A DNA stretch of 64,000 nt, from assembly GCA_963555755.3 (NCBI GenBank), contig OY820905.2, positions 1,472,001 through 1,536,000 on the forward strand, given 5' to 3'. The notes beneath the pieces were generated by a model. The model searched no databases, was not told where the DNA came from, and saw only the letters and a program-made list of their open reading frames with translations. Positions 3,581-22,844 of the stretch are shown one piece after another. Both the position numbers and the translations under genes were made by a program. The first letter of the stretch is position 1. Every line of letters begins with the position of its first letter. Source of the stretch: Nitrospirales bacterium (GTDB taxonomy: Bacteria > Nitrospirota > Nitrospiria > Nitrospirales > UBA8639).

Positions 3581-3706
3581 GTTTTGATAGGAGAATTAGG
3601 AAGTACACGAAAGCATTTCAATACAGTGACAGGGGATAAAAATCATTAAAAAAAAAGAAGATAGATAATACATCAAGCATGACTCAAAGCGGAGACAGGT
3701 CGTGTC

Positions 3707-4681
3707 TCATAACCCACGGATTATAAGATCATGCAAATGAATCATCCCTGCGACTTTTTTATCTCTCGTCAAAACCGGCAACAGCGAAATGGGCTTGTCA
3801 CGTTTCTCCATTTTCTCTAATGCCGAAAAGGCGTTTTCGTCATCAAACACAAAATCCGGCTTGGGATTCATAATCTCAATGACGGTGGCAGCAAACAGAT
3901 CATCCCCTCGCTCTAACACTTTCCGAATATCATAATCCGTGACCAGCCCGACTAAATGCCAGTCATCATCCCTCACCGACACTGCACCAGCACGCTTGCT
4001 CGTGATTTCCGAGAGCATCGTCCTCGTATCTGCGGAGACATGGATCACCGGATTGTCCTTCCCGGACCGCATGATATCCCCGACTGTCAGCAATAACCGT
4101 TTCCCAAGTTGCCCCCCCGGGTGATTGGCTGCAAAATCGTCAGGTTGAAAATTTCGTAATTTCATCAGCGCCATGGCTAACGCATCTCCCACGACCAAGG
4201 CAGCTGTTGTGCTGCAGGTCGGGGCCATAGTTACGGGACAGGCTTCTTCCTCTATGGGGGTATGAAGGACCAAGTCCGAGTGCCTGGCCATGGTCGATTT
4301 CGGCTGGGCAGTGATAGAAATGATCTTCGCGCCTATCTTTCGGGCCACAGGAAGAATCGTATTGAGTTCCTCACTTTCCCCGGATTTTCCAATGGCCAGC
4401 ATGACATCATCTTTTTGAATAATGCCCACGTCACCGTGCATGCCATCCGAACTATGCAGAAACATCGCCAGCGTCCCGGTCGACACCATGGTCGCGGCAA
4501 TTTTCTGAGCAATAATGCCGGACTTTCCCACACCAGTCACGACCACCTTGCCATGACACGCAAATAGTAATCGTACCGCTTCCTCATAATCCGGCCCTAA
4601 GTGTTTCTGGAGCCCTGCAATAGTCCGGGCCTCCAGTTCAAAAACGCGTCTTATTTCTGATAATACGTTGATTTTGCTCAC
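3707..4681 (-). CDS. kdsD: KpsF/GutQ-family arabinose-5-phosphate isomerase (SIS + CBS pair)
   Basis: VTGVGKSG, GMHGDVG, EEACP..APTCSTT, HPGGQLG motifs, C-terminal CBS domains. GTG at 4681 preferred over 4807 because a promoter-like site lies between them and the duplicate 5' copy starts at the equivalent GTG. Confidence 0.9.
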   Translation of the reverse strand: MSKINVLSEIRRVFELEARTIAGLQKHLGPDYEEAVRLLFACHGKVVVTGVGKSGIIAQKIAATMVSTGTLAMFLHSSDGMHGDVGIIQKDDVMLAIGKSGESEELNTILPVARKIGAKIISITAQPKSTMARHSDLVLHTPIEEEACPVTMAPTCSTTAALVVGDALAMALMKLRNFQPDDFAANHPGGQLGKRLLLTVGDIMRSGKDNPVIHVSADTRTMLSEITSKRAGAVSVRDDDWHLVGLVTDYDIRKVLERGDDLFAATVIEIMNPKPDFVFDDENAFSALEKMEKRDKPISLLPVLTRDKKVAGMIHLHDLIIRGL

Positions 4682-4750
4682 AATTTTTGGCTCATCTTGG
4701 ATTGGGAAAACCCATTCACCTTTAGACCGTCGGTACTGACGAATGGACGA

Positions 4751-4779
4751 ATTGCACCATATTCGCCTGTTGGAGTCAA
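4751..4779 (-). promoter_or_regulatory. Sigma-70-type promoter candidate for kdsD (island-borne copy)
   Basis: Minus strand TTGACT-N17-TGCAAT; the same boxes and spacing occur at 17334-17362 with a diverged spacer. Confidence 0.6.
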
Positions 4780-5249
4780 TCCAATACCCGAACGATTCGT
4801 TCAGCACCCCGTCCCATCACCAGTTGGCTATCCAACCCACTCCCAAAATTCGTATACTCACCAAATCTACATCGAGTAGAGGAGTAGGAAATCCGAGAGA
4901 TATTTTCCGCATAGGAATTGGTTCGATCCTCTCCATGAGAATGTTACATTCGTTATAAATTGGTTGAATTGCCATGTAAAAATCTCCTTTTAATTTTTGT
5001 GATGTGCCCATATTTTAGTTGCATCTCGAAAAGTAACAACTAAACCCATTATCGTAAATATGAATACGATTCATGGAACAGTGAAAAAAAGAGGAAGTGT
5101 TATTAGAAAGTGGAAGCCTCTCACCAATGATGTTGAGGGAATCTGTAAAATCGTGCAAAATGTGTGAGTTAAAAAAACTTCTATCTGCCCTTGATTTAGG
5201 AACGAAATTCAAGCGTACTTAACTCTTCCCATAAGATAAGGAAACCAAG

Positions 5250-5390
5250 GTGGGATCAGCAAATGTAAAAGTTGGAAATTTGAATCAGTTGCCACAATAC
5301 ATTAAAGAGGGGGACCTGGTTTTAGATGTGGGAGGAGGCGCAAGGCCACTAAGTAGGGCAAATTATATTTTAGACTTTATCCCGTGGCCC
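5250..5390 (+). pseudogene. N-terminal fragment of a SAM-dependent methyltransferase-like gene
   Basis: LVLDVGGGARPL motif-I-like sequence; beyond ~5390 the frame is only the antisense of the 5370-6047 gene. Confidence 0.45.
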
Positions 5391-6047
5391 TTTGGCGCCC
5401 ATAATATTGAGGTACTCCGTCTTGTAGGTTTTGACAATCCCTCTTTCAAATGCTTTACGCTGAAAGTCTGCCGCCAATATGACGATTGGATCCCATTTCA
5501 TTTCCGCAAAAATCTGGGCGTCCGAGACCAATTCTGGTACATCATCTGTCTCTCTGTGATCTTCGTACAACGTCTCAATCGATTTTCGGAATTCTATATT
5601 GGCGAGGACTTGTCCAATGATCCCATCGACGATAGTCAGATTAACATCTTGGTCAAGTATTTTGCCTTCCTCAACTGACACGATAAAAAAGGGATAATTC
5701 TCGTTTTGAGCTATTTTGAGTTTCAGGTTCAGCTTTAACTTGCGATGTGGATCAACTGTTTCAATTTGCTGGACATATTCTCCTTGTCTACTGAAGCCTT
5801 TACTCAAACCATCAAACTCTATAGACAGAATTGGTAACCCACGTTTTGTACACCACGTGTAGTCTATGCTTGTTTTCAAGAAGAAGTCGCGTTCCTTTTC
5901 CTTAAGGTCTTGGTCTAATGTTGCAAAATCGATTATCTGAGCGAAGGGTAAAGACGGCCAAAGGTCGAACACTGACCCCCATTGTGTATGAAGGCTTGTG
6001 AACAACTCCTTCTCCCCTCTGCTTCCAAATACGGATTTTCTAATCAT
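5370..6047 (-). CDS. DUF2726-like / PD-(D/E)XK-type protein, C-terminus probably truncated
   Basis: S..EKELF..L, SIDYT, LSIEFDG and late K..K.KIA....YPF pattern resembling DUF2726; preceded by an attC-like end. Confidence 0.5.
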   Translation of the reverse strand: MIRKSVFGSRGEKELFTSLHTQWGSVFDLWPSLPFAQIIDFATLDQDLKEKERDFFLKTSIDYTWCTKRGLPILSIEFDGLSKGFSRQGEYVQQIETVDPHRKLKLNLKLKIAQNENYPFFIVSVEEGKILDQDVNLTIVDGIIGQVLANIEFRKSIETLYEDHRETDDVPELVSDAQIFAEMKWDPIVILAADFQRKAFERGIVKTYKTEYLNIMGAKGPRDKV

Positions 6048-6052
6048 TTGTC

Positions 6053-6135
6053 ACATAACGATTGAGCTAACCCGCCGCAGCGAGAATGCTTTCCTGCAAG
6101 AGCTTCAAGGCCAACGAAGTCCGGCTTCAGCTTCA
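6053..6135 (-). other. Degenerate attC-like site
   Basis: Minus strand ends GCGGCGGGTTAGCTCAATCGTTATGT, resembling the L'/R' end of integron attC sites, 5 nt before the ATG at 6047; the R'' half is not recognisable. Confidence 0.4.
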
Positions 6136-6240
6136 CGCCCTAGTGCACAGACACAGACAGATGATTCACCCAGTCAGGCTTCAAGAGATTGAAAACACTT
6201 GCAAAATTTTTGTCTTCGTGACCGTCCCGAATGAGTCGGT

Positions 6241-6685
6241 GCACTAGCCTACAATCTGGCCAACTTCCTGCGCACATTAGTCTTGCCAACAGCCCTTGCC
6301 GACTGGTCACTGACCAGCCTTCGGGATCGAATGATCAAGATCGGTGCAAAGGCTGTCCGTCACGCCCGGTCGATCATCCTGCAATTGGCCGAGGTTGCCG
6401 TACCCCGTAATCTATGGGCACAGATGCTGACGACAATTTCTGGCCTCAAGGCAATGGCGCAAGTGCCATGATAACCAATATCATCCCGCACAAATTTGGT
6501 TACGGGCGTGTCGCACGCAGACGCCGAGCTATACCCAAAATCCTCGATAATCGGCAAAATCCCGCCCGAATGGCGTCAAATCCGTTGAAAATCGGTCGGA
6601 TGCTGCGCCAACCAAGACAGACTTGAAAAAAACAACGACCCATGCCAGTCTCGCGCTACGAAGAAACCCATCTGGGGAATATCAG
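6241..6685 (+). mobile_element. IS1380-family remnant (transposase C-terminus and right end)
   Basis: ALAYNLANFLRTL...WSLTSLRDRMIKIGAKAVRHAR; ends CATCTGGGGAATATCAG, similar to IS1380-family right ends. Confidence 0.75.
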
Positions 6686-7124
6686 TTTAGTCCGGCGTTG
6701 ACAGATGAGCCAGAATCTCTATTATTAAAGACGCTCATCAGTCTCAAATATTTTGACGATGTACACTATTTGAGTTATACAAGGTTATTCTTTTTTGATC
6801 TGGTGATTTCACGTGTGTGATTTCGTTTTAAAAGCATTGTTGCGCCCTTTCTACAGGTGTCTTCTGCCCATAAAAGACCTTCTATTTCCCCGTCCTTATG
6901 AAGCTGTAGATTTTGATAGTATTGCCGCCGCACGTGAAGTCGAGCAAGAAAAATGGAAGGATGAACTATGTGAGAGGAGAGAATTGGCCAGATCAATTAT
7001 GGACCGAAGTGATCCGTTAATTTCAACTGACATGGGGCTTTCTTTTTTGGACGAGGTAGCGGAAACCGATGTCGCACCTGCTCTCGACGCAATGGGGCAT
7101 ATCGTCAAATCAGGGCTCTATCTA

Positions 7125-8588
7125 TCAAACAAGAAACAGTTCCTCAGGTGTGATGATCTTTGTAGTGAATTGTGCAGGCATAAAGGGGTGGCCGATCATG
7201 GCTTGTGAAATGGCTTGCAGCATGTTGCCGCCCTGCTTTCTCGCGGTAGAAAGGTAGCTTCGTATGCGGGCGAACTGCCTCGCGCCTTGAAGCGTTCGAA
7301 AACACCCGGATATTTTGAGGCGGAGCTTGATCATGCGGATATCCTGTTCTGCCAGATTATTAGTGAAGGGAACCTGTCTGTCATGGAGGAACGCGAGCAC
7401 GGAGGCTTCATGCTCGCCAAGACGGGTGAGGAGATTTTGGGCCTTGGTCTTTTTGGGCCGGCCTCGTGACTTTTTCTGTGGCGGTGCCGGAAGGGGGTTG
7501 GCCTGCCATCCGAGGGTGAGAAGATCCCTGTATTGTTTCAGCCAGGGGGTTTTCTGTTCTTCCGTTAACTGTGCGAGTTGCTTGCTGACAAACACGTTCA
7601 TCGTCAGCAACAGGTCAAACATGTGTTTGGCCCATGGTTGTTCGTGCTGCTCGAACAGGCACGTGAGTTCCCGCAAATGATGGGCGTTACAGAGGCCGTG
7701 GGCACAGTCATAGGAGAGATAGGGTTTCCAGAAATCGTGGATCAGGCGGCCAGCAAAATCCGGGAGGATCTGGAACTGCTCGATCGCCTCTCTTCCCCGT
7801 TTGGCGTGCACACCGTAAAAGGTCAACGTGGCCGTGCTGGCACTGTGGAGCCAGTGGAGCGTCCCGGCCGTGCGGACGCCGCTTTCATCGGCATGGAGGA
7901 TGGGACTCTTGCCGAGCGCTTCTTTGACCGCAGTCTCGAACGGCGCGAGGTGCTCATAACTTCGGCGGGAGGCCTCGTCAATGGTGGCGTCGCTGACCGA
8001 GGCGCCATACAGATCAGCCATCATCTGGCTGACACGGCGTAAGGGGATCAACTGTTGGTTCTGGAGGTAGACCAGGAGGCTGCGAAATCTGGGACCGTAC
8101 TGTGCCGGCGCAGGCAGGTCATCAGGAAATGACGCCGTGACCGAGCGGCCGCATTGGGGGCAGGTTTTGATTGCTCCCCGATATTCGGTGACGTCGAGTT
8201 TTGGCTCCGGCAGTTCAAAGAGCTGCCGGCGTTCATAGCCGGTGACCGTCTCGTTGGTGAGGTCGGCATGGCAGGAACAGGAGTGAACAGGCAGGTGGAC
8301 CAGGTGGTCTGGGGTTTCCACCTGTTTTAACGTCTGGCCGGCATGTCCCTGTTGGCCGCCCGGCTTTTTCCCGGAAGGTATGCGCAGGCTCTTGGTTCGG
8401 GGCTTGGCCGGTCCATCGGACGAGGGCGGTTTGCTGCTGTTGCGACTGTGTTGGTCGAGCCGCTGTGCCAGTTCGGTGACATGCGTGGTCAGCGCCTGCC
8501 CCTGTTCCTGCAGCGCCAGGATCAGTTCGACGAGCGCCTCGGGGTTGCTCTTGGCCAGGATGAGGAGTGCGTCGCGGGTGAAGGTCAT
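7125..8588 (-). CDS. IS66-family transposase (TnpC-like)
   Basis: NSSKPPSSD, KKPGGQQGH, Zn-ribbon CPQC, HADESG, LIHD, CNAHHLRE, PFTNNLAEQDIRMIK. The last ~15 codons probably read into flanking DNA. Confidence 0.93.
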   Translation of the reverse strand: MTFTRDALLILAKSNPEALVELILALQEQGQALTTHVTELAQRLDQHSRNSSKPPSSDGPAKPRTKSLRIPSGKKPGGQQGHAGQTLKQVETPDHLVHLPVHSCSCHADLTNETVTGYERRQLFELPEPKLDVTEYRGAIKTCPQCGRSVTASFPDDLPAPAQYGPRFRSLLVYLQNQQLIPLRRVSQMMADLYGASVSDATIDEASRRSYEHLAPFETAVKEALGKSPILHADESGVRTAGTLHWLHSASTATLTFYGVHAKRGREAIEQFQILPDFAGRLIHDFWKPYLSYDCAHGLCNAHHLRELTCLFEQHEQPWAKHMFDLLLTMNVFVSKQLAQLTEEQKTPWLKQYRDLLTLGWQANPLPAPPQKKSRGRPKKTKAQNLLTRLGEHEASVLAFLHDRQVPFTNNLAEQDIRMIKLRLKISGCFRTLQGARQFARIRSYLSTARKQGGNMLQAISQAMIGHPFMPAQFTTKIITPEELFLV

Positions 8589-9547
8589 GGCTTGCTCCGG
8601 CAGAGGGCCTGTCGGAAGTGGCGGATGAGGGGATAGAGATAAATTGCCTTCACCGGCACGCGCAGAGCCTTGTCACGGTCCTGCCGGGACCGGCCTTTGG
8701 TCTGCCCGACATAGAGCCAGTTCGCGGCCTGATAGCAGATACCTTTGAAGCGGTCTCGCTCCACAAAGGTCTCCACCAAGTGGACGGGATGGCCGTATTT
8801 CTCGATCCAGTCCTGCCGGAGACGTCTCATGACCCGGCCCAGGAGATGGCTGGCCAGATGCGGCACACGCACCCAGGGCAGGATGAGAAAGCGGGTATTG
8901 TTGGTCATGAAGTTGAGGTTGGCGGCTCGGGTGTCCGGCTCCCAGCCGATAAAGGTGTCGCGCGGGGTGGTTTTCCAGGCGGCGGAACCGAAGAGGAGGC
9001 AGGCCAGATCCTGCCCGGAGCGATCCCGCACCAGGTACTTGAGATGTTCACCGACCGTTCGGGTGAACCCGAGGTAGTGATGGTGGCTCAGGTAATATCC
9101 CACACAACTGGCTTCGTAGGAATGTGAGGTTGGAATATGAATGGACAGGGGCGTCAGGGTCTTGAGAGCTGCGTCGATGTGCGGGGCTTCGGGAGGCATA
9201 AACCCCTTTCGGAAAGGGGGGAAGATGTTGCGTCGAGAGGCGACACGAATCGGGGGCAGCTTCAGGAGCCCGCGATGTTCGAGTTTGTCGATCATGCTGC
9301 GGGCGGCAAAGGTTTTCAGTTGTCCGGACGGGGTCTGCCAGCCCCAGTGCCGACAAATATGCTGGGTTATTTTATGGCGGCTCCAGTCAGGGTGCCGGCA
9401 AACCAGATGGCGTAACCAGCACAGATCAGATTGGGGGAGGCGACGACCTTGACATGTAATCGCTTCATTCATGGCCCCGATTATGCCATGGGTGGAGCCG
9501 TTAGTCCAGAAAAAAATCAGGCTATAGAAAATTGACCTGAGTAGTTA
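7170..9547 (-). mobile_element. IS66-family element carrying DUF4338
   Basis: Upstream end GTAACTACTCAGG at 9547 (IS66 ends start GTAA); the downstream end is not recognisable, so that boundary is approximate. Confidence 0.75.
8585..9472 (-). CDS. DUF4338 (DruA-like) protein, coupled to the IS66 transposase
   Basis: HHYLG..VGEHLKYLV, RDTFIGW, NNTRFLILPWV, LASHLL, ETFVE..RFKG.CY.AANW..VG.TKGR; stop overlaps the transposase ATG. Confidence 0.85.
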   Translation of the reverse strand: MNEAITCQGRRLPQSDLCWLRHLVCRHPDWSRHKITQHICRHWGWQTPSGQLKTFAARSMIDKLEHRGLLKLPPIRVASRRNIFPPFRKGFMPPEAPHIDAALKTLTPLSIHIPTSHSYEASCVGYYLSHHHYLGFTRTVGEHLKYLVRDRSGQDLACLLFGSAAWKTTPRDTFIGWEPDTRAANLNFMTNNTRFLILPWVRVPHLASHLLGRVMRRLRQDWIEKYGHPVHLVETFVERDRFKGICYQAANWLYVGQTKGRSRQDRDKALRVPVKAIYLYPLIRHFRQALCRSKP

Positions 9548-9813
9548 CCAACTACAATTAAACTCGTGATGCTGGGCTGTGACGCCGATAAGGAAAGTGG
9601 CCCTCTGACAGTCCTTCAACGTGACGCGTCGCGCGATGCGTACAAAGCTTTGGTAGGAAAGAAAAGGAGTTCTCTTAGTAAGAGTATTCCAAACTGGAAT
9701 GTCATTATTCAGCATAATTGAATAAGAGGATCTTACGAAGGATCGATGATGGAACAATGTACAACCAATGCGATCCCTCCAATGCGCATATGCTAGTTGG
9801 TAAAAAGGGACGA

Positions 9814-10825
9814 TATGCCTTCCCATTTGACTAAGGTTAGTCCCTAGACTAGTCTGCTGGACTATGGACACAGGGTATGCTGCTGATATCTTGGATTTTT
9901 CTGTTAGGTTCCACACCGAAGAAGCGTGCTTCGAGTACTTGCGGGCGATTCGGTGGCCAGACGGGTTTATGTGTCCAGCTTGCGGTCATCGCGGTGGTTG
10001 GTGGCTCAAAAAATATTTCCGGTTTGAGTGTTCGTCGTGTCATAGACAGACATCACCGCTAAGCGGCACAGTGATGCATAGATCGCACTTGCCGCTACGG
10101 CTTTGGTTTTGGGCTGCCTATTTCGTCTCCACGCACACACCTGGCATCAGTGCTGTGCAATTGCAGCGTCAACTCAGTATCAAGAAGGTGGATAGCGCCT
10201 GGTATTTGCTCCACAGATTGCGACGAGGAATGGTACGACAGAACCGTGAACGGCTCGCAGGAACAGTTGAAGCCGATGAAACCCATATCGGTGGACCGGT
10301 AAAAGGCAAAACGGGCCGTGGCGTCGCGAAAGCGAAAACCAAGACGTTAATAGCCGGAGCCGTAGAAATTGTCACGTACACACAAGGGGATCACTTTCGA
10401 GAGAAAGCAGGGCGTTTACGATTAGCGATTCTTCAAGACGCTGGAGAGAACGAGATCAAAGCATTCCTCAATAGCCATGTCGCTGAGGGCAGTAAGATCA
10501 AGTCCGATGGTTGGAAGGGATACTCGGCAAAAGCCTTGGCAGGATACGAACACCTGAGACGGACCCAGGGTGACCCAGCAAGTGCTGGGAAGCACGCTCC
10601 ACACATCCATAGAGCGTTCGGCAATCTGCAGACCTGGCTGAACGGGATTCACCATGGAGTGGATTCAAAATACCTGCAACACTATCTTGATGAGTTTGTC
10701 TTTCGCTATAACCGCCGTGAGACTCCAATGAGTACCTTCCAGAGTTTGTTGAAAATCCTGACCAGCAGCTCAAAACCCTTGGGATTCAATAAACTGAAGC
10801 AACCTTAGTTAAATGGGAAGGCATA
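9814..10825 (+). mobile_element. IS1595-family element, complete
   Basis: TIRs TATGCCTTCCCATTTGACTAAGGTT / AACCTTAGTTAAATGGGAAGGCATA; 8-bp duplication AGGGACGA at 9806-9813 and 10826-10833. Confidence 0.93.
9864..10808 (+). CDS. IS1595-family transposase
   Basis: RWPDGFMCPACG Zn ribbon, VEADET, SDGWKGY, YLDEFVFRYNRR. Confidence 0.93.
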   Translation: MDTGYAADILDFSVRFHTEEACFEYLRAIRWPDGFMCPACGHRGGWWLKKYFRFECSSCHRQTSPLSGTVMHRSHLPLRLWFWAAYFVSTHTPGISAVQLQRQLSIKKVDSAWYLLHRLRRGMVRQNRERLAGTVEADETHIGGPVKGKTGRGVAKAKTKTLIAGAVEIVTYTQGDHFREKAGRLRLAILQDAGENEIKAFLNSHVAEGSKIKSDGWKGYSAKALAGYEHLRRTQGDPASAGKHAPHIHRAFGNLQTWLNGIHHGVDSKYLQHYLDEFVFRYNRRETPMSTFQSLLKILTSSSKPLGFNKLKQP

Positions 10826-11979
10826 AGGGACGAATTATGTTAGCTGATACAAATAGGTGCTACCATTTTGGAAGTAGGCCAGGGAGCAAGGATCGATGGG
10901 TTTTCTTCGTTCAGTTTGTCGGATGACCCAACACTTTTCCATGGAGATTCTAATGAGAAACCTCTGCCAACTTGGCTTACAGATGGTCTCGCACCAACTG
11001 AGAAGAGAATTCGCGAACTTCTTTTCCAGAATTTCCAAAAAGAAAGAAAGTCATCCGAAGCTGCTAAAGTAACTTACCGAAAAGCCGGTACAATATCAAT
11101 TCCTGGTTAATGTGTGTTTTCTTTGAGAAGTATCCGCTGTCCTGCCTCCCTATAACTGGTCCCTTGTGAAGAATCCTGATTTTACGCTGGCGCGAGATTT
11201 TTCAGACCGTCAAGCGGATAGAGGATTTTGAACAAAAGAACCTTCAGCCACTGTGCGATGCGTCTGAAGTTGTAACCGGCGGCGGCGAGGACGGCGTTGA
11301 TGCGGTCGCCTTCACGGGCCTTGAGGTAATTTCTGTCCATTCGGTGTTCCTGTTTGAGATGGCCGACATAGCCTTTGTCCACATAGGCGCGTTCCGGTTC
11401 GACGCCGATCCAGTTGGTGAGTTCCTCGATGACTGTTCTCAATGTGTGGCCGTCATAAGGGTTCCCATGCAGCGCCTTGGCGTGGAGCACGAACATGCCG
11501 CCGGGGACCTTTGCGTTGGTCGTTGTAATCGAGACCTTGCAGCCGAACTCATAAGGTTTGTGGGCCTTGCCTTTGCCGATGCATTCGGTTTCTGGCGCGT
11601 GCAGGGAATAAAGCTTGGGGCCTTCCTGGCGCCTCTTCTGAAGCCTGAGACGCACGGCCATGGCGAGTTCGCCGGTGAAGGCCGCTTCGCGTTCTTCGTT
11701 CCCCTCAATCTTGCGGCGAATGTCGCGAATGATCCGGCCCAGCCGCACGGCTAGGAACTTCACCTGTTTGCGATGACGCTTGAACTGTTTGGCGTGAGCG
11801 TAACGCTGAGCCTTGATCAAGGCCAGCTTGCCAACGCGCACATAGCTTTGCCGGAGTTTGACGCCGTGACGCCTGGCTAAAGCCCCCAAACGGATGATCG
11901 ATGTGTAAAGCAGTTTCGCATCCGTCGGGAAAGCAATGTTTTTGGGCTGGACCGTCGTATCGACGGTGACGCGTTTAAC

Positions 11980-12845
11980 TGTGAGATTTCCTCGTGTTGT
12001 TTACAGTTTAAAGAAAAATGTTCGTAACTTTTCGTACGGCGTGATGTTGTCGATTCCCGCATGCGGTTTGACCGTATTATAGAAATTGACGAATCGGGCA
12101 AGGCCGAGTCTCCGGTCTTGCCTGGAAGGAAAAATCGTGGCGGCATGCCACATCTCCAGAAGCGTTTTGAGCACCCGCTCCGCCTTGCCATTGGTCTGGG
12201 GGCGCCGGACCCGGGTAAATTTCTGCCCCGTGCCGTTGGCCTTGCACCTGGCCACGAACGCATGATCCGGGGTGCCTTTATATTCCGTGCCATTATCCGA
12301 ATAGGCACATTCGATCGTGTAGGGGCATTCCTCGAGCACTTGCTCCAGGAACGCCGCCGCAGACGTTTGCGTTTTGTCGGGTAGGATCGCCGCGTACAGC
12401 TCTCGTGAGAAATCGTCACTGGCCACGAACAGATGCTCCCGCGGGAGGGTCTTCTTCTCGCCTGCGAGCCACGGTAAGCGTTTGGTGTCAAAGTGGAGCA
12501 TCTCCCCGGGATAGCTTTTGTTGTAGCGCCGAGCGGCAAGTTTTAGCTTGCGCTCAAGAGCCTGCTCCACCTTGGCCAGGCGTTTCATCCCGTACTGTGC
12601 CTGCAAAAAGCGCGTGTTGGGGGATGGTCGAGGCGCAAACTCCTGTTTTCGCGCCCGGTCGATCACCTTGTAAATGGTCGGCCGAGAGACGCGGAATTGC
12701 TGCGCGAGCGCTACAACCGTCCACTGCCTCGTGCCATACCGTTGCCAGATCTCTTGTCGATCAAGCGGCGTTAACCGGGTTCTTTTGTGTATTGTCATGT
12801 CTACATCCTCGCAAAAAGATGTAAACAACGCTAGAAAAAATCACA
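11980..12845 (-). mobile_element. IS481-family element
   Basis: TGT...ACA termini with imperfect TIRs; GTTTAAC duplicated at 11973-11979 and 12846-12852. Confidence 0.9.
12001..12798 (-). CDS. IS481-family transposase (HTH + rve)
   Basis: MTIHKRTRLTP, PGEMLHFDTK, SDNGTEY, PQTNGKAER, FYNTVKPH. Confidence 0.9.
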   Translation of the reverse strand: MTIHKRTRLTPLDRQEIWQRYGTRQWTVVALAQQFRVSRPTIYKVIDRARKQEFAPRPSPNTRFLQAQYGMKRLAKVEQALERKLKLAARRYNKSYPGEMLHFDTKRLPWLAGEKKTLPREHLFVASDDFSRELYAAILPDKTQTSAAAFLEQVLEECPYTIECAYSDNGTEYKGTPDHAFVARCKANGTGQKFTRVRRPQTNGKAERVLKTLLEMWHAATIFPSRQDRRLGLARFVNFYNTVKPHAGIDNITPYEKLRTFFFKL

Positions 12846-13509
12846 GTTTAACGTCTTTCACCCGCAATGCGCCGGTGCGATGAGCCGTGCTGAGACTTTC
12901 CTTGATCAGTTCGGCGAGCTTTTCCTCGCCCAGCCTTTGACGCCAGCGCGTCATCGACGAGCGATCAAACGGCGCCTCGTGCTGAAAGAAAATCTCGCCG
13001 CAAAAATGTTGGTAATACGGGTTCTCCACCCAGCGTTCGCTGACTTCCGGATCCGATAATCCGTACATGTATTTGAGGATATTGAGGCCAACCATCAAAC
13101 GGGTCGGCAGGGCGGGCCGGCCCTTCGTATAGACCGCGCCGAAGGCCTCATCGAAGCGCGACCAGTCGATCGCTTCGGCCAGCCGCACCAGCTCATGGCG
13201 CGGGTTTATGATGTTCAAAAGGCGATGACGGAACAGGTCTTCAGCGTCGTCGTCGAACCGTTCTTTCGGCTTCATCGGATCATTCCCTTGAGGCGAAAAT
13301 CAACGCCAGAAGGGAATCACAATTTGCAAGATATTGCACCAAAAACCCCCGAAAACTTGCAAAACCGAAACCTTCGAAAGACCCAAACCCCATGAAAAAT
13401 CAAACGCCTACGCTTTGATCACAAAGGACTAACTGAGCCAGTTGTGGTATGAATATCTCAGTCATCAGGAGATGATGTAATGACCCGGAAGCGGTTTTCA
13501 GAGACGGAG

Positions 13510-14421
13510 CTATATCGGGTAGATCCGTTCATCAAGACAAACCCCAAAATCCCGTACTAATTGCCGGTTGCTTTCGACGTAGAGACCTTCCAAGGCGCGG
13601 CGTGCATCGGCACTGAGCCCCACATCGCTTCCCTTCCTTCGCTCACTGTACCTAGCTATGAATTGCATCCCGTATTGGAGCCGTTGCGGAATCAAGGTGC
13701 GTATTCGATTCACAAAAGGAGAGCCTTTCCTAAAAAGGAGCGTGCTTTCGCTTACGAAGCGCGAACCGAAGGTGACGTTCTCAAACGGGCGTCCCGCCAT
13801 CAGGTCAATGCCAGTCTTCTTGTCCACGCCCAGCAAGCCGCAGATCCCCTCCACGAAACGCCCTTGATCCTCAACGAGGTCCTCATACTGAAAAATTTTC
13901 AAATTTTCCGCTCCGAAGACCGTTGAATATTCCTTTGCGACATTCCAGAAATCCATTTTACCGAATGAGGCATGGCGACCATCGGATACCAAAGCTGCGT
14001 TCTCCAGGACCCATTCGCCGATGGAAGCAAATTCCTGATAGAGTTTTTTCTTGAAGAAATGGCTGGTAGCAAGGGTGTACTGTCTTCTTATGACATAAAT
14101 TACGGTCGCATCGCCGAGCAATTCTCGAACCCGTCTCGCCTGCACGCCAATCGGCCCAAACTCCGGGGACGAAAATGACTCCAAGGAAAATAAAACGGGC
14201 AGCTCGACATCGCCTGGCAGGATTTCTTGAAGCTTTGTTCTAGCCTTTTTTTCGGAATACTCGTCAACATTGGTAAAGGACACATACTTACAAAAATCAT
14301 ACGCGGCCTCGGGCCCCGCCTTTCCGAGATAAAACAGACCCGGATGACGCGCAAACAGCTGCATTTGTAATGACGTGCTCGCGGTTCGAGAAGCGCCAAT
14401 ATGCAAATAAATTCTACTCAT
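13510..14421 (-). CDS. Sulfotransferase-like P-loop protein
   Basis: YLHIGASRTASTSLQ (5'-PSB-like), FSLESF, IYVIRRQ, YEDL, Y.ESN..L; start taken at MSRIY. Confidence 0.75.
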   Translation of the reverse strand: MSRIYLHIGASRTASTSLQMQLFARHPGLFYLGKAGPEAAYDFCKYVSFTNVDEYSEKKARTKLQEILPGDVELPVLFSLESFSSPEFGPIGVQARRVRELLGDATVIYVIRRQYTLATSHFFKKKLYQEFASIGEWVLENAALVSDGRHASFGKMDFWNVAKEYSTVFGAENLKIFQYEDLVEDQGRFVEGICGLLGVDKKTGIDLMAGRPFENVTFGSRFVSESTLLFRKGSPFVNRIRTLIPQRLQYGMQFIARYSERRKGSDVGLSADARRALEGLYVESNRQLVRDFGVCLDERIYPI

Positions 14422-14506
14422 CAAGATAGTTCCTCTTACTCTCAATTTTGGTGGTGGGCTAGGAGTTCCTCCAGGTCAATATCATGGGAAGTTGCTCTAT
14501 GCACGC

Positions 14507-14657
14507 CAATCGGGGAATAGGAATTTTAAAAGGCCTGTTTGACTAGACGGTAAAGTACCAAAGAACGGGGTGAAGGGTCAATCCGAGAATAGGAAAATTA
14601 AAAGGCCTTTTTAACTGGGCAGGAAAGTATCAAAGCAGGCACTGGAGGGTCAATCCG
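14507..14657. repeat. Two diverged 72-bp tandem units, each with a minus-strand promoter-like motif
   Basis: Units begin CAATC at 14507 and 14579, and again at 14651; each has TTGACC-N16-G(A/G)TACT facing the sulfotransferase gene. Confidence 0.6.
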
Positions 14658-14684
14658 CCCAATCAGGGCTTCGATGAGAACCTG

Positions 14685-14850
14685 TCAATTACACCAATCC
14701 TTCGTCTTCGTCCCCCCATCATAAGAAACCGCGAACTGTCGTTCAATCAGTAACTCTGAAATATCCACCCAATCGGCTTTGAGCCTCCCCACAATCCTGA
14801 AATATTTCCCTCGGACTTCTTTGGGATTATCGTCAATATGGTATGGCGTG
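14685..14850 (-). pseudogene. Thermonuclease (SNase)-like C-terminal remnant
   Basis: Manual translation RGKYFRIVGRL...DISELLIERQFAVSYDGGTKTKDWCN*; no N-terminus. Confidence 0.55.
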
Positions 14851-14851
14851 G

Positions 14852-15490
14852 TCATCCTCTAAACTTACGGCCAAAGATTCGGCGGCACACCCAGACGGGC
14901 AACGCTAAGTGCAGGCGTGGAACTGACCCATCAGATTTCCACTGTGCTTCAGCGGCCAAGCTGAAATTCGAGGCGATGCCAACTAGATCCCCCGAATCAT
15001 TGATAATTGGGCCTCCAGACGTGCCACCCTCGATTTGCTCGTCAGTTTCTACCCAGAGTGTTTTATCGTCTTCGCGGCATAGCGTTGCACTCCCAGTCAC
15101 CCATGTCCCTTTATGGGTGTAGATGTGAACTTGGAACTTCTGAAATAGCACATAGTCCTCTCTTCGACACAACGGCACCGGTTTCGTATCTTCGCAGAAC
15201 TTCTCAAAATCATCTGCTTCCTTGGAAAACTCTTGTTTATCCAGTGAACCCAGAACGGCTATATCGCTGACAGGTTCCACAGCCAGCGGGCTAACCTTCA
15301 ACTCTCTCTCGCCAGTCTTGATTTTCTCAATAAAGTAATCACCTAACACCATACCGCCTTCGCATTCATAGTTAATACAATGGGCAGCCGTAAGAATCAG
15401 GTTGCTGCTGACTAAAACCCCCTGTCCGCCCTTTCTTAAAAGAGTCACTGTTGCCTTTGCAACGTCGGTGTACATGCTTTCTCGTAGCAT
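14852..15490 (-). CDS. Trypsin-like serine protease, no signal peptide
   Basis: Triad motifs LTAAHC, SDIAVL, GGTSGGP. Confidence 0.85.
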   Translation of the reverse strand: MLRESMYTDVAKATVTLLRKGGQGVLVSSNLILTAAHCINYECEGGMVLGDYFIEKIKTGERELKVSPLAVEPVSDIAVLGSLDKQEFSKEADDFEKFCEDTKPVPLCRREDYVLFQKFQVHIYTHKGTWVTGSATLCREDDKTLWVETDEQIEGGTSGGPIINDSGDLVGIASNFSLAAEAQWKSDGSVPRLHLALPVWVCRRIFGRKFRG

Positions 15491-15752
15491 CTCTGTTTCG
15501 CCTTTATAAAACAGTTGCAGCGGTCGTTGGGTTTTGTTTGCCGCCGCCTAACTAGAAATAGGCTGCCCAAATGCCATATCCATTGACGGCATGAAGTTCA
15601 TGAAGGTTCAGCAATCATTCACTCACACCAATCTTTCGTTTCAGTGCAGCCACTTCCCACATGTTGGCAATGGTGAGTTCTTCGAGGGTGACAAGGTCTG
15701 AGTTGGGATCGAGGGGGGAGGCCATCCTTGTCTCCTGAATTCCACCCGATGG

Positions 15753-16643
15753 TTAGAACGGTCCAGTTGCCACATCCCCCTCAATACCCCCGAACAGGTG
15801 AGGCATTCCAACGGCGTTTTCCTCGAAGAGCGCAAGCCCCTCAAGCCCCGGATACACCGTGGACCGACTAATGTTCATTTGATGAAGCTCTCTGAAGCAC
15901 TGCTTCAAGCTATCCGTGCTCAAGGTTATTGTATAGACCCTTAGATGTAGATCGAGTGTAGGTTTTGGGGCGATTGCCTCGAAGTTCTTCATCAGAGATT
16001 TCGTTACGTCCAAGGGCAGGACGAACGCGCCTTGCTGCACAGCAAGACGGTCATTCAGGCGGAAAGGACTCATGATCCAGACACCGGGCGTTCTTTTCAT
16101 TTCGAAAAGGGCCTTACTCTCCTCAGGAGAATTTGACCCGTGCTCCTTGATTGCGTTTTTCAGATTGGAGTTCTTCTCTTTAACCTGTTCTACCATCCAC
16201 CGTGCGTCGAGGGCCCAGACTTCGCAGATATCCCTGTCATCTTTGGCTCTCTCAAGTGCGAAATGCAGAGCAAGCCAGAAAGAGTAAGTCCAATCTTGGA
16301 GGCGTGCTGGGCCACCATAATGACGAAGCAGGGCAAGCCATTCCATCTTGTTCTCGTTAGGCGGTACCTGCGCAGTGACAAGGTGGCAACGGCGCATGAA
16401 GTCTCGGAGTAGCCGATACTCAAGCGTACGGGCCTCTTTGAAGGGGAACCCAAACCTCTCCATCGCCCTTTCCAGACTGGTCTTCAGTGAAGGGCCTTCT
16501 TCTTTTTCGTTTTCCTCAGTCTTCTTTCGGCTTAACTGTCCGCGAAAGAGCCAGCCGTCCCAGAGGTCTCCGTTTTCCCCGTACAACTTGCATAGTTTGT
16601 CCCAAGACTGGAGTGGCTCGCCAATAGGAGGGATAGTCATCAA
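15753..16643 (-). CDS. FRG-domain protein
   Basis: WLFRGQ, LKTSLER, WLALLRHYGGPARLQDWT.S...ALHFA, NDRLAVQQG.F, L..MNISRSTVYPGLEG. Confidence 0.88.
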   Translation of the reverse strand: MMTIPPIGEPLQSWDKLCKLYGENGDLWDGWLFRGQLSRKKTEENEKEEGPSLKTSLERAMERFGFPFKEARTLEYRLLRDFMRRCHLVTAQVPPNENKMEWLALLRHYGGPARLQDWTYSFWLALHFALERAKDDRDICEVWALDARWMVEQVKEKNSNLKNAIKEHGSNSPEESKALFEMKRTPGVWIMSPFRLNDRLAVQQGAFVLPLDVTKSLMKNFEAIAPKPTLDLHLRVYTITLSTDSLKQCFRELHQMNISRSTVYPGLEGLALFEENAVGMPHLFGGIEGDVATGPF

Positions 16644-17111
16644 CGACCTCCGTCTGGGTAAGTCTTGACCGGAGCGTAGGCGGTTGCCCGGAGCCTGTCA
16701 ACGGAGAATGGGTCTCTCCACGGACATTGGTCCCTGCCTCAGCGGAAACGATGGCGACACGATGCCTGACCCTGAAAGGGTAGCGACTGATCACCCCATC
16801 AGGCGAGGTCGTCCTCCAACTCAAAACGCCGTCCCGAAAATCGATAGTGGGGATGATACTACGTAAAAATACCTACTATTCCATTTCAAAAAAATAGCAC
16901 GTGTGCGATGAGGGGTCCGGCCATTGGCACCCCAACGGAACAATTGTGGGATCGACTTTTTGCGGGAGTGATTTTCGTGGGTTACGTGATCGAAAAACGG
17001 ACGTGCGATCAGGTGTTACATAGGTGTTAGAAGTACAGACAAACGGGTGGGATTAGAGGCAGAGAGAGGCAAAGTCAGGCAAAGAGGCAATCTGCGACCA
17101 GGCAGGCTGTG

Positions 17112-17155
17112 AGAGGGAATTGCCCGTCTTTACTAGCGTTGAGCAATTCCCCCTC
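17112..17155. other. Hairpin next to the right att-like core
   Basis: GAGGGAATTGCCC...GAGCAATTCCCCCTC imperfect inverted repeat just inside the 23-bp core. Confidence 0.55.
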
Positions 17156-17158
17156 ATC

Positions 17159-17263
17159 TTATTCCTCATAATCCGGCCCTAAGTTTTTCTGGATCCCTGC
17201 AATGGCCCAGGCTTCCAGCTCGAGGACGCCTCTGATTTCTGTAAACACATTGATATCACTCAC
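17159..17263 (-). pseudogene. kdsD: Orphaned 5' fragment (34 codons) of kdsD
   Basis: GTG start with AGGAG upstream; MSDINVFTEIRGVLELEAWAIAGIQKNLGPDYEE* aligns with MSKINVLSEIRRVFELEARTIAGLQKHLGPDYEE of the intact gene. Confidence 0.85.
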
Positions 17264-17333
17264 AGTATTGACTTTCTCCTAAGGGAAAAACTCCGGTTCA
17301 CCGTTAGATCCTCGAAATCTACAAAGTGGTAGG

Positions 17334-17362
17334 ATTGCACTATCTTCACCAGTCGGAGTCAA
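17334..17362 (-). promoter_or_regulatory. Sigma-70-type promoter candidate (presumed original kdsD promoter)
   Basis: TTGACT-N17-TGCAAT; a divergent TATAAT lies at ~17436 on the plus strand. Confidence 0.6.
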
Positions 17363-17502
17363 TCCAACACCAAAACGATTCGACCAGCACCTGGTCGTAT
17401 CACCTGCCGGCTATTCAACCCACGCTCAAAATTCGTATAATCCGCCTCCCGACATTCATCATTCTTAACCCAAATCCTAACAGGACCTGAAGGCCGCACA
17501 TT

Positions 17503-18219
17503 CTGAAACCTATTACAAAAAAAGTTATTATCCACGTCTTTACGCAACTCGACTACCCGGCACTCGGAAAAATATATTGCGACGAGGGTGGGGACGCATT
17601 TTGGAAAGACCGTAAAGGTTCTTGCCAAATATTGGGAATGCGAATAGCCTCACAGCTTAAAAACCGCCTTACAGAAAAAGGACGTAGCCTATACGTGGGA
17701 GCGGGTGTGGCGGAATTGCCGATGCTTGTTGTGGAAACAACCGAACTTGACCGATCAGTCACAGCCCATAATCTGCGAAAAGACGAAGCCGCTATTCTTA
17801 ACAAGGCATGCGCCGACTTACCGTTTGAAATTCAGGCCAGTAACGCTTCGCGGGCTCGAGGTCGCTTTAATCATATATGGCTTGTGAGCGTCCTCAATGA
17901 CCCAGAATGCTACCCCGAAACCTCCGCCCTCTCCTATGGGCATGCCACCCCTGTAAATTTTGATGCCAACACATTTAAAAAAGAGCGGCGCACACTCATT
18001 CGGCTCATCAACTCCTGTCTCAGCAAACTCACCCTTCCCGGGCTCGTCTCCACCACGGTTGAAGAAATTCCCTGGATCACGGCATGGTGCTTAGAAAGGG
18101 ACATTCCCTTTCACATAGAAGATAAGACATATCCCACAGCCATTGTTGGAGACCCTTTATGTTTCATTCACCTTGGGAAAAAATCACCACATAAACACAG
18201 AAAGCCCAAAAGAACATGA
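17503..18219 (+). CDS. Hypothetical protein, possible methyltransferase-like fold; probable non-canonical start
   Basis: Frame is open from CTG 17503, 43 codons upstream of the track's TTG 17632; SLYVGAGVAE glycine motif. Confidence 0.6.
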   Translation: MKPITKKVIIHVFTQLDYPALGKIYCDEGGDAFWKDRKGSCQILGMRIASQLKNRLTEKGRSLYVGAGVAELPMLVVETTELDRSVTAHNLRKDEAAILNKACADLPFEIQASNASRARGRFNHIWLVSVLNDPECYPETSALSYGHATPVNFDANTFKKERRTLIRLINSCLSKLTLPGLVSTTVEEIPWITAWCLERDIPFHIEDKTYPTAIVGDPLCFIHLGKKSPHKHRKPKRT

Positions 18220-18259
18220 ACGTCTCGTTTTCCCTCTGCGACAAAGGGGACTGGAACTA

Positions 18260-19231
18260 GTGGCTTCCTTAGGCCTTGGACTCATCGGACTCGGTCGGCA
18301 CGGCCAGCGCTATGCCCGGCATCTACTGGAAGGCATTCCCCATTGCCAGCTGGTGGCTGTATGCCGACGAGATGCAGCCAAAGGCCAGACATTTTCGACA
18401 CAACATGGACTTCGATTCTACCGAGACTACCACCACCTTATTGCCGATCCACAGATTCAGGCCCTTCTCGTGGTCACCCCACCAACCGAAGCCATCCCCA
18501 TTGCCCTCGAAGCCATTCGCCAAAACAAGCCGCTTCTCATCGAAAAGCCCATGGGGTGTACAGCACTCGACGCGCACCACCTGCTCAAAGAGTCAATGCA
18601 AACCAAGACCCCCCTCATGGTAGCTCATACGCTTCGTTACGAGGACACCATCATACAGCTGAAAAACCACGGAGGGGAAATAGGAAAATGGTAGTACCTC
18701 GTCCTGACCAACCGATTAGAGTCACCCTCCGATCACAAATCACTATACTCATTACATCGCCAAGGCGCCCTTCTAGAAATCGGCATTCACCAGCTGGACA
18801 TGGTGCGTTTTCTCACCGGGCAAGAGGTCAGGCAGGTCAATTGCGAAATGGAGCGACCTCACCCACAGGACCCGGATGTCCGAGCTTGGGTGAGCCTTAA
18901 AACCGAATCCGGCCTACCTTGTCTTTTGGATATCTCTCGACTGAACAACACAAGACTCACTCGGGCAGAAATCATTGGAGAAACAGGACAACTCATTGCC
19001 GACTGGACCTCGCATTCCTTAATACTCCTCAAAGAAAATGGCTCCACGACTTCCATTCCACTCACAACAAAACCAGCGATTCCTCAAATCATCTCAGACT
19101 TTGTTCGCGCGATCCAATCCGGCGCTCCTATGCCCATCACCGGACTCGATGGCCTACGAGCACTCGAGATGGCAGATGCCTGTTACGAATCAGCCAAAAC
19201 CCGGAACGTTGTCATGCTCAAGAAACACTAA
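18260..19231 (+). pseudogene. Gfo/Idh/MocA oxidoreductase with one in-frame TAG (18692-18694)
   Basis: GLIGLGRHG, LIEKP, then in the same frame after the TAG: GALLEIGIHQLD ... ITGLDGLRALE. Confidence 0.8.
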
Positions 19232-19244
19232 ATCTGCCCAAAAA

Positions 19245-19402
19245 AGCCGAAAATCGAATATCGAAATCCGAAAAAATTTCAAATGACCAAATCATAAACA
19301 ACAAAAACGCCGGGAGACAGAATAAGTCGGAATGATTTGGTTGAGACATTCGAGTTTGGGATTTTGGATTTGTTTCGGATTTCGATATTCGAATTTCGGA
19401 TT
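19245..19402. repeat. Inverted heptamer-repeat hairpin (AAATCCG/AATCTCG type)
   Basis: GAATATCGAAATCCGAAA...TTTCGGATTTCGATATTCG; related copies at ~31421-31480 and ~33300-33440. Confidence 0.75.
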
Positions 19403-19439
19403 TATGCCACAGACCAAATCACAACTCCGTTCAATTTAT

Positions 19440-20927
19440 TTATTCTGTTCGGCTAGCCTCGCCCCCTGGCATGCTGCGACGCTGACGAGCAAAGATAGCA
19501 TGCAGGTCTTGATTTTGACTCACAAAGCGTTGGCGGGCTTCGAGAAAGATTTCTTCAATCAAGGCCCAATCCACCTGGCTTAGATGGTACGAATCAAAAG
19601 CCGTCTCAATACGTGGATTCTCCCACATCGATTGCTGCATGGAATACTCCACCATGGCTTCTAAGGATTCAGACGTCCAACCTTTCTCATAAAACGAATC
19701 GCGAACTGTTGCCCCCTGCATCCCCCACCGCGCAACTAGGGCTGAAGAAAAATATTCGTAAACCGCTGGTTCCTGGCTCTTCATAAAAACCGATTGAAAT
19801 TGAATGAGGGATCGAATCAATTGATTGGCACGCGGGTCGGCCTCGGGCGGCAAAACCCCTGCTTCATCAAACGTTCCAAGAATAGCCATCACGGCACCCA
19901 CATACCGCGCAGGTGCCCGAGAAGTTTTCACAGGCTTGGCTGAAACCGGAGGGACATAAATCTCATTGAGATTGCTGAAAGACCCCCCCGGTGTAGGACC
20001 ACCACTGATCACATAGACATATCCGTCGATTACAGCCGCCCCAAGCCCATGACGTGCGGTCGGCATTGGAGCCATGACTTCCCAACGATTCAATCGAGGG
20101 GAGTACCGTTCATTTGCGTCAAAGGTCCCTTCACCGGATTCCCCTCCAAAAACATAAATCCACTCATGAATCACACCTGCCGTTATCCCGCTTCGCGCAG
20201 TGGGCATACCGGGGCGTGACTTCCATTGGTTCACAACCGGATCATACACCTCCACCGTTCCCAAATTATGGTGATAATCCAGTTTGACCCGGCCACCAAT
20301 GGCGTAAATCCGATCTTCAACTGTCACCGCTGTTAAATGATCTCGAGGAGTAGGAAGGGAGGCAACCGAGGCCCAGGCATCCATCTGTGGATCGTACACT
20401 TCCACTGCATCAGGATTGAGTGTTCCATCATAGCCACTCATCGCATACAGTTTTCCCTGGAGCACTGCCACGGCTAACCCACCACGTGCAGTAGACAATG
20501 ATGCTCTCTCTTCCCATTGACTGGTTTTGGGAGAGTATCGGAACACGCGTTTGGATGGATTCCAAATAGACATTCCGGACTTGATAAAACCTCCGACAAT
20601 ATATACATGTCCCTCTAAGGCAGCAGCTCCCGCATGATGCAGCCCAATAGGCAATGAGGCTTTGGGCGTCCATCGGTTTGTCGCAGGGTTATACGCTTCG
20701 ACGGTTTGACTCACAGCAAACCGAAAAAGATTCCACACATTTGGTTTCTCAAACCCACCTGCAACATAGATCAGACCATCCAACGCCGCCACGGTCACTT
20801 CCGTTCGTTCAGTTGGAGCAGGAGTTCCCGTCACCCAGTGGCCCTGTTCGGAGGCCGCCATGAGTTGTCCAACGGGACACGTAAAAAACAGGACAATGCC
20901 AATCACCCAAAAACACACGGTTCTCAT
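19440..20927 (-). CDS. Exported Kelch-repeat beta-propeller protein with an extra C-terminal helical domain
   Basis: Signal-like N-terminus; six GG..Y.P...W Kelch repeats; ~160-aa unrelated C-terminus. Confidence 0.85.
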   Translation of the reverse strand: MRTVCFWVIGIVLFFTCPVGQLMAASEQGHWVTGTPAPTERTEVTVAALDGLIYVAGGFEKPNVWNLFRFAVSQTVEAYNPATNRWTPKASLPIGLHHAGAAALEGHVYIVGGFIKSGMSIWNPSKRVFRYSPKTSQWEERASLSTARGGLAVAVLQGKLYAMSGYDGTLNPDAVEVYDPQMDAWASVASLPTPRDHLTAVTVEDRIYAIGGRVKLDYHHNLGTVEVYDPVVNQWKSRPGMPTARSGITAGVIHEWIYVFGGESGEGTFDANERYSPRLNRWEVMAPMPTARHGLGAAVIDGYVYVISGGPTPGGSFSNLNEIYVPPVSAKPVKTSRAPARYVGAVMAILGTFDEAGVLPPEADPRANQLIRSLIQFQSVFMKSQEPAVYEYFSSALVARWGMQGATVRDSFYEKGWTSESLEAMVEYSMQQSMWENPRIETAFDSYHLSQVDWALIEEIFLEARQRFVSQNQDLHAIFARQRRSMPGGEASRTE

Positions 20928-21193
20928 GAACTTCCCACCAGCGTAAGTATTTCTATTCCGTGTAGCTGTGCCCTCTCACCTGCCTGCACGCTTGCGCGCC
21001 AAGGCCGACTTCAGCGGCGAGCACGAAAGCAGGCGAGATGCTGCAACTACGCAAGAGAAACAAGGGTCCAGAAACCTACCTTCCATTTGAATACTGATAT
21101 CAAGAAAAATTCTCGGCTTCCTTGAAAACCAGAAAAACACCTGCTTATAATCCATTTGCCCCTCATGCAAATGTCCCTACCATTGAGGCAAAT

Positions 21194-22720: not shown

Positions 22721-22844
22721 ACTTGGGGCAAAGCAGAATCGGCGACATCCGCACTGGTTACCCTAGAAACGGCAGTAGGGCGCAAAAAAGACGTGTAAGA
22801 TATTTGGTGTGCATGGTGAAATACAAAAATTCGTGATCACCTTA

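Follow-up and report, generated by a model that had tools for sequence, protein, structure and literature searches.

Three described systems bear on the stretch of DNA considered here (the window), namely, the 64,000 nucleotides at C1:1472001-1536000 of a Nitrospirales genome (G000; 4.62 Mb, two contigs), in which a block of foreign DNA carrying an attachment (att) arm begins just upstream of kdsD, a gene of the arabinose-5-phosphate isomerase family, and ends within comM. The first comprises islands that bring a replacement gene end in attP, as seen with icd and tRNA genes (PMC10111431). The window resembles these in that each apparent att site is flanked, on the same side in both cases, by a homologous block of ~280 bp, and in that one end has an intact gene. 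Here, however, it is the native allele that is intact and the end that looks displaced that is foreign, which inverts the rule for such islands. Moreover, the functional 5' end does not derive from the element, the boundaries (4864/21563) lie off the att cores, neither an integrase nor attL is present, and, of 21 distinct arms of the family in question, a number drawn from thin sampling, only that of the window abuts kdsD.

A tested case of a tRNA-targeting tyrosine-integrase island at a secondary site is ICEBs1, for which such use by a tRNA-specific element has been shown (PMC3715440). Common to both are a tRNA-specific element at a non-tRNA site, a mismatched overlap and a retained att arm. 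By contrast with ICEBs1, the block keeps only what appears to be attR, lacks an integrase, attL and conjugation genes, and the host side of its attR comes from another species. Features of a tRNA-island remnant were nonetheless found, namely, a family arm in register with a 7-bp overlap, and sister islands in which a PF00589 integrase adjoins an intact tRNA gene. Finally, homology-facilitated illegitimate recombination (PMC5361080) shares with the present locus a single homologous anchor (here, comM), loss of the intervening recipient DNA, an orphan gene end left behind and, at 4864, a joint that lacks att features and may be non-homologous. The locus differs in that the event is deduced from population sequence, the anchor is ~83% identical and microhomology is unreadable.

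The two kdsD 5' ends and the extent of the foreign block

Six island-free loci served for comparison, namely, those of genomes G005 and G006 and the metagenome loci L054-L057, the latter being all four metagenome loci with the exact 23-bp core repeat described below and sharing the layout of G005; L054 is nearly identical to G006. The features of the window on which the comparison relies are as follows.

3707..4681, minus strand: native, intact kdsD of the KpsF/GutQ family of arabinose-5-phosphate isomerases, 324 amino acids from GTG 4681, with one SIS and two CBS domains (Pfam) and a TIGR00393 match above the cut-off.
4580..4864, minus strand: left copy, comprising the native kdsD 5' end and a conserved upstream block, in a clade (support 100/99) that excludes the right copy.
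4864..4865, no strand: left edge of the foreign DNA, a joint that has no att arm; identity to G005, G006 and L054-L057 ends there, at 4864.
4820..5014, minus strand: 64-amino acid open reading frame (ORF) that runs from foreign DNA over the joint into native DNA, a chimera also present in JGI and ENA records.
17159..17447, minus strand: right copy, comprising 34 codons of donor kdsD 5' end, orphaned and closed by TAA, together with the upstream block of the donor, 75.6-77.2% identical to the six closest relatives and branching outside their clade.

Against the KdsD equivalog model, the kdsD product scores 293 bits, below the cut-off of 505. The gene contains one copy of an exact 23-bp repeat (4580-4602 = 17162-17184; termed here the core) that extends no further on either side and that has no third copy in the genome at up to three mismatches. 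A preliminary description of this DNA had noted the repeat, a diverged homologous stretch with a conserved TTGACT-N17-TGCAAT, and, at the right copy, an AGGAG ribosome-binding site (RBS) and a stop codon at the core edge, all of which are indeed present. The homology spans 283 bp at 75.6% identity, TTGACT-N17-TGCAAT lies at 4751-4779 in the left copy and at 17334-17362 in the right, and the right copy, with AGGAG 12 nt ahead of GTG 17263, runs for 34 codons to TAA at 17159-17161. A sigma-70 scan of 4600-5300 gave TTGACT-N17-TGCAAT no score. On the minus strand, 4751-4770 and 17334-17353 present GG-N10-GC in the left and right copies, as well as in G005 and G006, with palindromes upstream (~4790-4835); the spacing is one that we take to be sigma-54-like.

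Over 4580-4864, the left copy is 96.1% identical to G005, 95.8% to L055, 96.8% to L056 and 95.4% to L057, as compared to 75.6-76.0% for the right copy against the same four loci; for G006/L054, the values are 82.5% and 77.2%, respectively. The body of kdsD (4240-4579) is 96.5-99.1% identical to G005 and L054-L057. All six island-free loci carry a left-like 5' end, followed directly by the gene found at 17503 in the window, and a right-type 5' end was seen in none of 10 relatives compared (62-77%), such that the left copy is ancestral in relatives, an outcome that the preliminary description had itself named as refuting its proposal. In segment trees, the left copy, the kdsD body and the 3' part of comM group with close relatives, with the right copy and the 17503 gene falling outside, while the weak RBS of the left copy recurs in close relatives and so represents the native state. 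As the left copy is close to island-free kin and the right copy is distant, the left kdsD 5' end is native and the right one foreign. The proposal that an element had exchanged the promoter and 5' end of kdsD therefore has its polarity reversed (95-97% identity to island-free kin on the left, 76% on the right), the promoter swap being only apparent, a look-alike. Regulation of kdsD is predicted to be unchanged and the block to be immobile; no sign of the suggested cell-surface switch was seen.

The foreign DNA corresponds to 4865-21562 (16.7 kb) and not to the 12.6 kb between the cores (4580-17161) earlier taken to be the element. Identity to G005 is 96-97% to the left (1-1498 and 3649-4864), 76-81% inside the block and 94-96% in long matches to the right. 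On the right, identity to L057 across comM is 83.4% over 21122-21562 and 97.3% over 21563-22600, the last dense mismatch being at 21562; the switch at 21562/21563 is thus a homologous crossover that left the frame intact. No tandem arm motif was found near the 4864/4865 joint. A larger element reaching leftward over the polysaccharide locus was also considered and rejected, given that the genome holds no donor-type kdsD body and that 1-1498 is 96% identical to G005.

Contigs of four public runs (X1, X2, X3 and X7) from two studies provided population data, one of these runs being a possible source of the present assembly. Both breakpoints defined from relatives (4864 and 21562) match contig ends in these runs: an X3 contig covers 3792-4864 and stops exactly there, and in X1-X3, 21563 is the first base of native contigs and 21592 the last of low-depth ones. 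Depth in X1-X3 is 61-121 in the flanks and 7-25 inside the block (15-19 and 2-6, respectively, in X7), which fits a minority haplotype, run depth not being a share of cells. Contigs covering 17135-18290 (X1-X3) are continuous across the right core. No excision product of the kind sought in the preliminary description, no 4602-17185 joint and no empty right-type site was seen in contigs of the four runs, which drop rare variants and so would miss rare joints. About 0.4 of the words are also shared by the sediment runs X8-X16, the evidence here being that of X1-X3 and X7. The ORF at the 4864 joint is found again in JGI and ENA entries, which differ from it by 0, 2 and 3 amino acids, hence the joint occurs outside this assembly too; no other homologue was found among 1.84 billion representatives.

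Between the right core and the right boundary lies a segment of donor chromosome.

17503..18219, plus strand: donor copy of a conserved hypothetical gene divergent from kdsD, 81% identical in DNA to G005 and L055-L057 (95-99% at kdsD), with the best other protein at 83% among the matches listed.
18143..19231, plus strand: donor Gfo/Idh/MocA oxidoreductase gene with an in-frame TGA at 18692.
19440..20927, minus strand: donor Kelch/mutarotase-like gene, 82% identical to L057 over 19617-19919.
21122..22720, plus strand: chimeric, intact comM/YifB ATPase gene, donor type to 21562 and native from 21563, with a TIGR00368 match above the cut-off.

The nearest named homologue of the 17503 gene product, among the matches listed, is from Candidatus Nitronereus thalassa (66%); this match and the recurrence of the att arm in Nitrospirales metagenome-assembled genomes fit a Nitrospirales host. 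No donor lineage was found among six other genomes of the genus, the four metagenome loci with the exact core and the 120 protein matches listed of 1417.

The right-hand junction and a family of att arms

The junction at the right core was next compared with other sites in the order.

16850..17161, plus strand: att arm of a Nitrospirales tRNA-island family, with a tandem AGGTGTTA at 17011-17029 and a hairpin at 17112-17155, 81-84% identical to the arms at G000 C1:4038234 (tRNA-Thr CGT), 1373369 (tRNA-Gly CCC) and 4093060.
17162..17168, plus strand: putative 7-bp overlap TTCCTCA, placed by the register of sister arms and matching the tRNA-Arg(CCT) loop TTCCTAA at six of seven positions.

The hairpin and the arm-like tandem lie where the preliminary description had placed them. 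The arm recurs in the genome, there followed by 3' pieces of tRNA-Thr(CGT), tRNA-Gly(CCC) and two tRNA-Leu genes. In contig C37 of G005, the arm is 92% identical over 17013-17166 and leads into tRNA-Arg CCT; indeed, this arm is identical to that of the window from the hairpin through TTCCT, where it continues as tRNA-Arg(CCT). In the sister islands, PF00589 integrase pieces adjoin intact tRNA-Thr CGT, Arg CCT, Gly CCC and Leu CAG genes, and the attL sides of tRNA-Thr and tRNA-Arg carry related GGTGTTA tandems.

A survey of such arms included 25 loci, 13 from one match set (four other kdsD-side matches being set aside) and 12 of 27 from another, from which 15 non-Nitrospirota matches, by eye without the hairpin, were dropped. 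With one locus lacking the motif and three duplicate pairs, 21 distinct arms remained. Eighteen of these abut a tRNA piece, two resemble (by eye) decayed tRNA-Leu ends and one, that of the window, abuts kdsD. The distance from the tandem is 133 nt at kdsD, as compared to 133 nt at tRNA-Thr and 132 nt at tRNA-Arg in the sister arms. Strand exchange by tyrosine integrases takes place over about 7 bp (PMC10111431). From this register, we infer that 17161/17162 is an integrase-made attR with overlap TTCCTCA at a non-tRNA site, the target register being consistent with tRNA-Arg(CCT)/Thr(CGT); the six-of-seven overlap match is weak when taken alone, there being 11,330 such sites in the genome.

The 23-bp repeat as such was rejected as an att core. 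G005, which is island-free, has 32 exact bases in common with the right copy, and in simulations, a run of at least 23 identical bases arose by chance within such homology in ~10-13% of cases, so that the length of the run is explicable by chance. Rather, it is at 17162 that chance is exceeded, by a left edge that is sharp and that shares the register of the sister islands. The suggestion of a secondary site for a tRNA-targeting integrase accordingly holds as regards an att-type junction with an arm of a tyrosine-integrase family, yet not as regards the tRNA-Met target then proposed: the match to a tRNA-Met anticodon loop, CTCATAATCCG, does exist but lies off register by 3 nt, and the window arm is of the Arg/Thr type. 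This 11-nt match is to tRNA-Met at C1:3836017, and one arm of the family (L070) does target tRNA-Met.

More broadly, this single att-arm family (L058-L081 and the sister islands of G000) serves tRNA-Leu, Arg, Thr, Gly, Met, Pro and perhaps Lys genes, in both orientations and across Nitrospirales. A literature search yielded no paper on the family, nor one treating Nitrospirales together with a genomic island, tRNA and integrase; likewise, no paper was found that combines kdsD with an integration site, a genomic island and an integrase, or Nitrospira with kdsD and horizontal gene transfer.

The other parts expected of a complete island were sought in the block. The search for a tyrosine integrase called for in the preliminary description gave 16 PF00589 matches in the genome, none of which lies in the window, and the sister integrases have no tblastn match there better than an E value of 0.89. 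Sister integrases and attL regions match nothing in the block beyond pieces of insertion sequence (IS) elements, and the block contains no second arm tandem, as expected of an attL arm. No tRNA gene was detected in the window and no Rfam family in 3500-23000.

Origin of the block

In the explanation toward which we lean, kdsD is native, as is the region upstream of it, and the foreign DNA of 4865-21562 comes from an unsampled sister lineage and includes an integrase-less remnant of a tRNA-type island, which likely integrated off-target into the kdsD of the donor and likely moved via a crossover in comM and a non-homologous joint at 4864. As the host side of attR is donor DNA, integration would have taken place in the donor, where a tyrosine integrase of the tRNA-Arg(CCT)/Thr(CGT) type would have used TTCCTCA in kdsD as a secondary site. 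Judging by the register, the product would have comprised the arm, the overlap and the donor kdsD 5' end. Subsequently, donor DNA made up of the right-hand portion of the island plus 4.4 kb of chromosome would have replaced the ~4 kb of recipient DNA between the kdsD upstream block and comM, with the 17503 gene, the oxidoreductase gene, the Kelch gene and the comM 5' end of the recipient being lost and the integrase end of the island not carried across. This step resembles homology-facilitated illegitimate recombination anchored in comM, a process reportedly treated by de Vries and Wackernagel in 2002. Survivors would have been limited to joints sparing the single kdsD of the recipient and its promoter, and IS elements later filled the cargo, as shown by contigs that lack them. 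The genome encodes comEC and dprA, making natural transformation a candidate route of uptake.

Several observations weigh against this explanation. Its main weakness is that the donor kdsD allele would be broken, although kdsD, the loss of which is costly, is found in 373 of 401 genomes of the order and nearly always as a single copy, such that the donor may have been unfit. Moreover, as the donor was not found, its attL and any microhomology at 4864 are unreadable. A mere 85 bp separate the joint from the promoter, the conserved block ending close by, and the block, at 285 bp, is similar in length to known replacement sequences, which reach up to about 250 bp (PMC10111431). In G006/L054, ancestry switches at the same core (from ~97% to ~78%), and G367 has a small (4-nt) deletion beside the core position, with neither an arm nor an integrase being found at kdsD in G006/L054 or G367. 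Finally, recombination of the illegitimate type is described as orders of magnitude rarer than ordinary recombination (PMC5361080).

Some of these points would be accounted for if the island truly bore a replacement for the kdsD 5' end, which a faulty excision that lost the integrase had earlier taken up from this lineage, and entered the donor kdsD at the core; homologous crossovers in the 285-bp fragment and in comM, one in each, would then have brought the block back. The donor would have stayed viable, the fragment length and a joint just past the promoter block would suit a replacement sequence, and the G006/L054 switch and the 4-nt deletion of G367 could mark repeated activity; the architecture proposed in the preliminary description would then hold for the donor, with no allele change here. 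We nonetheless consider this rather unlikely. About four rare events are required, the block holds no attL arm or integrase, no second kdsD-targeted arm was seen among the 21 distinct arms or in five genomes with double kdsD matches, thinly sampled as these are, and a homologous tract ending in a conserved run explains the G006 switch equally well. Indeed, two kdsD N-termini were detected in only 8 of 373 matching genomes, G000 included, and none of the five examined among the seven others showed an arm-type junction: G110 has two paralogues, the second copy in G434 and G439 is ended by the contig end, the double match of G367 reflects a frameshifted kdsD and a different repeat cuts that of G008 at about codon 40, with G320 and G353 having been assessed from search rows alone. 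Less probable still is the broader notion that, within the genus, the integrase family repeatedly targets a non-tRNA site, the kdsD core, with an element lineage retargeted from tRNA-Arg by capturing the kdsD 5' end and promoter, and with recombination at the core contributing to the reassortment, between species, of the border of the polysaccharide locus; in that case, the ancestry switch of G006/L054 and the deletion of G367 would represent further scars.

A rescue, in which a complete island with a broken kdsD came first and intact sibling DNA later restored kdsD and its promoter through a left-anchored event, with an illegitimate joint at 4864 removing attL and the integrase, would account for the position of the joint immediately beyond the promoter block and is in keeping with kdsD being a mosaic anchor beside a variable polysaccharide locus. 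This scenario is likewise improbable, as it takes one event more than does transfer from a donor already bearing the remnant, the genome has no donor-type kdsD body and run contigs present no intermediate. That the right copy is ancestral here and an element brought in the left 5' end and promoter, as originally read, has very little probability: the RBS of the right copy is indeed the stronger of the two, and the order of genes beside it (17503 gene, oxidoreductase, Kelch, comM) is the usual one in the family, but close relatives have the left type with the same weak RBS, the foreign signal reaches 4.4 kb past the right core, the contigs at 17135-18290 (X1-X3) and 3792-4864 (X3) are unbroken over the core, and no contig offers the 4602-17185 joint. 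Least credible is an assembly chimera of two co-occurring populations. While block depth is ~1/7 that of the flanks and no listed contig spans the block, the low-depth contigs reaching 21592 overlap native contigs by 30 bp, the latter then being unbroken for ~1.3 kb, in runs of two studies, and the junction ORF at 4864 is found in JGI and ENA records with 2-3 amino acid differences.

If transfer from a donor already bearing the remnant is indeed what occurred, the mechanisms are ordinary. It is their combination that is unusual, and the locus is a new instance of them. The window offers a clean natural record of DNA transfer between species at ~80% identity; each breakpoint is placed to single-base precision and, judging by depth, the haplotype is still a minority one. 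The locus gives no support for a cell-surface switch and reveals a trap: where an orphan gene end adjoins an att arm, the arrangement can mimic a replacement-carrying island although the polarity is reversed, a point of relevance to tools in which repeats are used to map islands.

Cargo and minor observations

The part of the block to the left of the arm contains four unrelated genes and several IS elements.

4865..16849, no single strand: island cargo without an integrase (Pfam, PADLOC), comprising a hypothetical gene (5370-6047), a sulfotransferase-like gene (13510-14445), a trypsin-like gene (14852-15490), an FRG/PDC-S15-like gene (15753-16643) and IS elements.
7143..9548, minus strand: multicopy pair of an IS66-family transposase gene and a DUF4338/DruA-like gene, a late insertion of 2.4 kb with 14-15 genome matches per 400-bp piece.
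9812..10825, plus strand: IS1595-family element (Pfam), a late insertion with 42-48 genome matches per piece; an X1 contig joins 9804 to 10825.
11182..13275, minus strand: IS5-family transposase gene split by an rve-type IS (11972-12853).

Contigs of X1 and X2 skip 7143-9548 along with 216 other letters, and about 14 near-identical copies of this element are found in the genome. The left part of the cargo has no DNA match in 300 other genomes of the class and one protein match (40%) in 300 other genomes of the order. The FRG-domain protein (15753-16643) matches the PADLOC candidate PDC-S15 (E 1e-31), and as such is a possible defence cargo gene. At 14507-14650 lie two tandem copies of a 72-bp repeat with dozens of genome matches, likely a transposon end.

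A similar repeat was encountered at L106 (G008:C63:216-353), where an orphan kdsD 5' end is cut at about codon 40 by a sequence resembling 14507-14650, representing a second, unrelated capture of a kdsD start. Elsewhere, kdsD is frameshifted in two metagenome-assembled genomes, by a 1-bp deletion in L033 (G002:C90, ~2315) and by a deletion of ~4 bp in L112 (G367:C15, ~4915), these being either pseudogenes or assembly errors. L054 and G006:C296, which match 4240-4608 of the window, form an independent mosaic, ~97% identical up to the core and ~78% straight after. The 14-kb contig G000:C2 is 99.98% identical to C1:4141231-4153174, with an additional 2.2-kb multicopy element; given this near-identity, it is a duplicate or a circle rather than unique sequence. 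Lastly, an intact, native-type copy of the oxidoreductase gene (C1:26413-27474, 97.2% identical to L056) survives 1.46 Mb away, together with the 3' part of the Kelch gene (C1:25588-27476), between repeat ends, with neighbours that we take to be a transposase-like ORF and a recombinase-like scrap.

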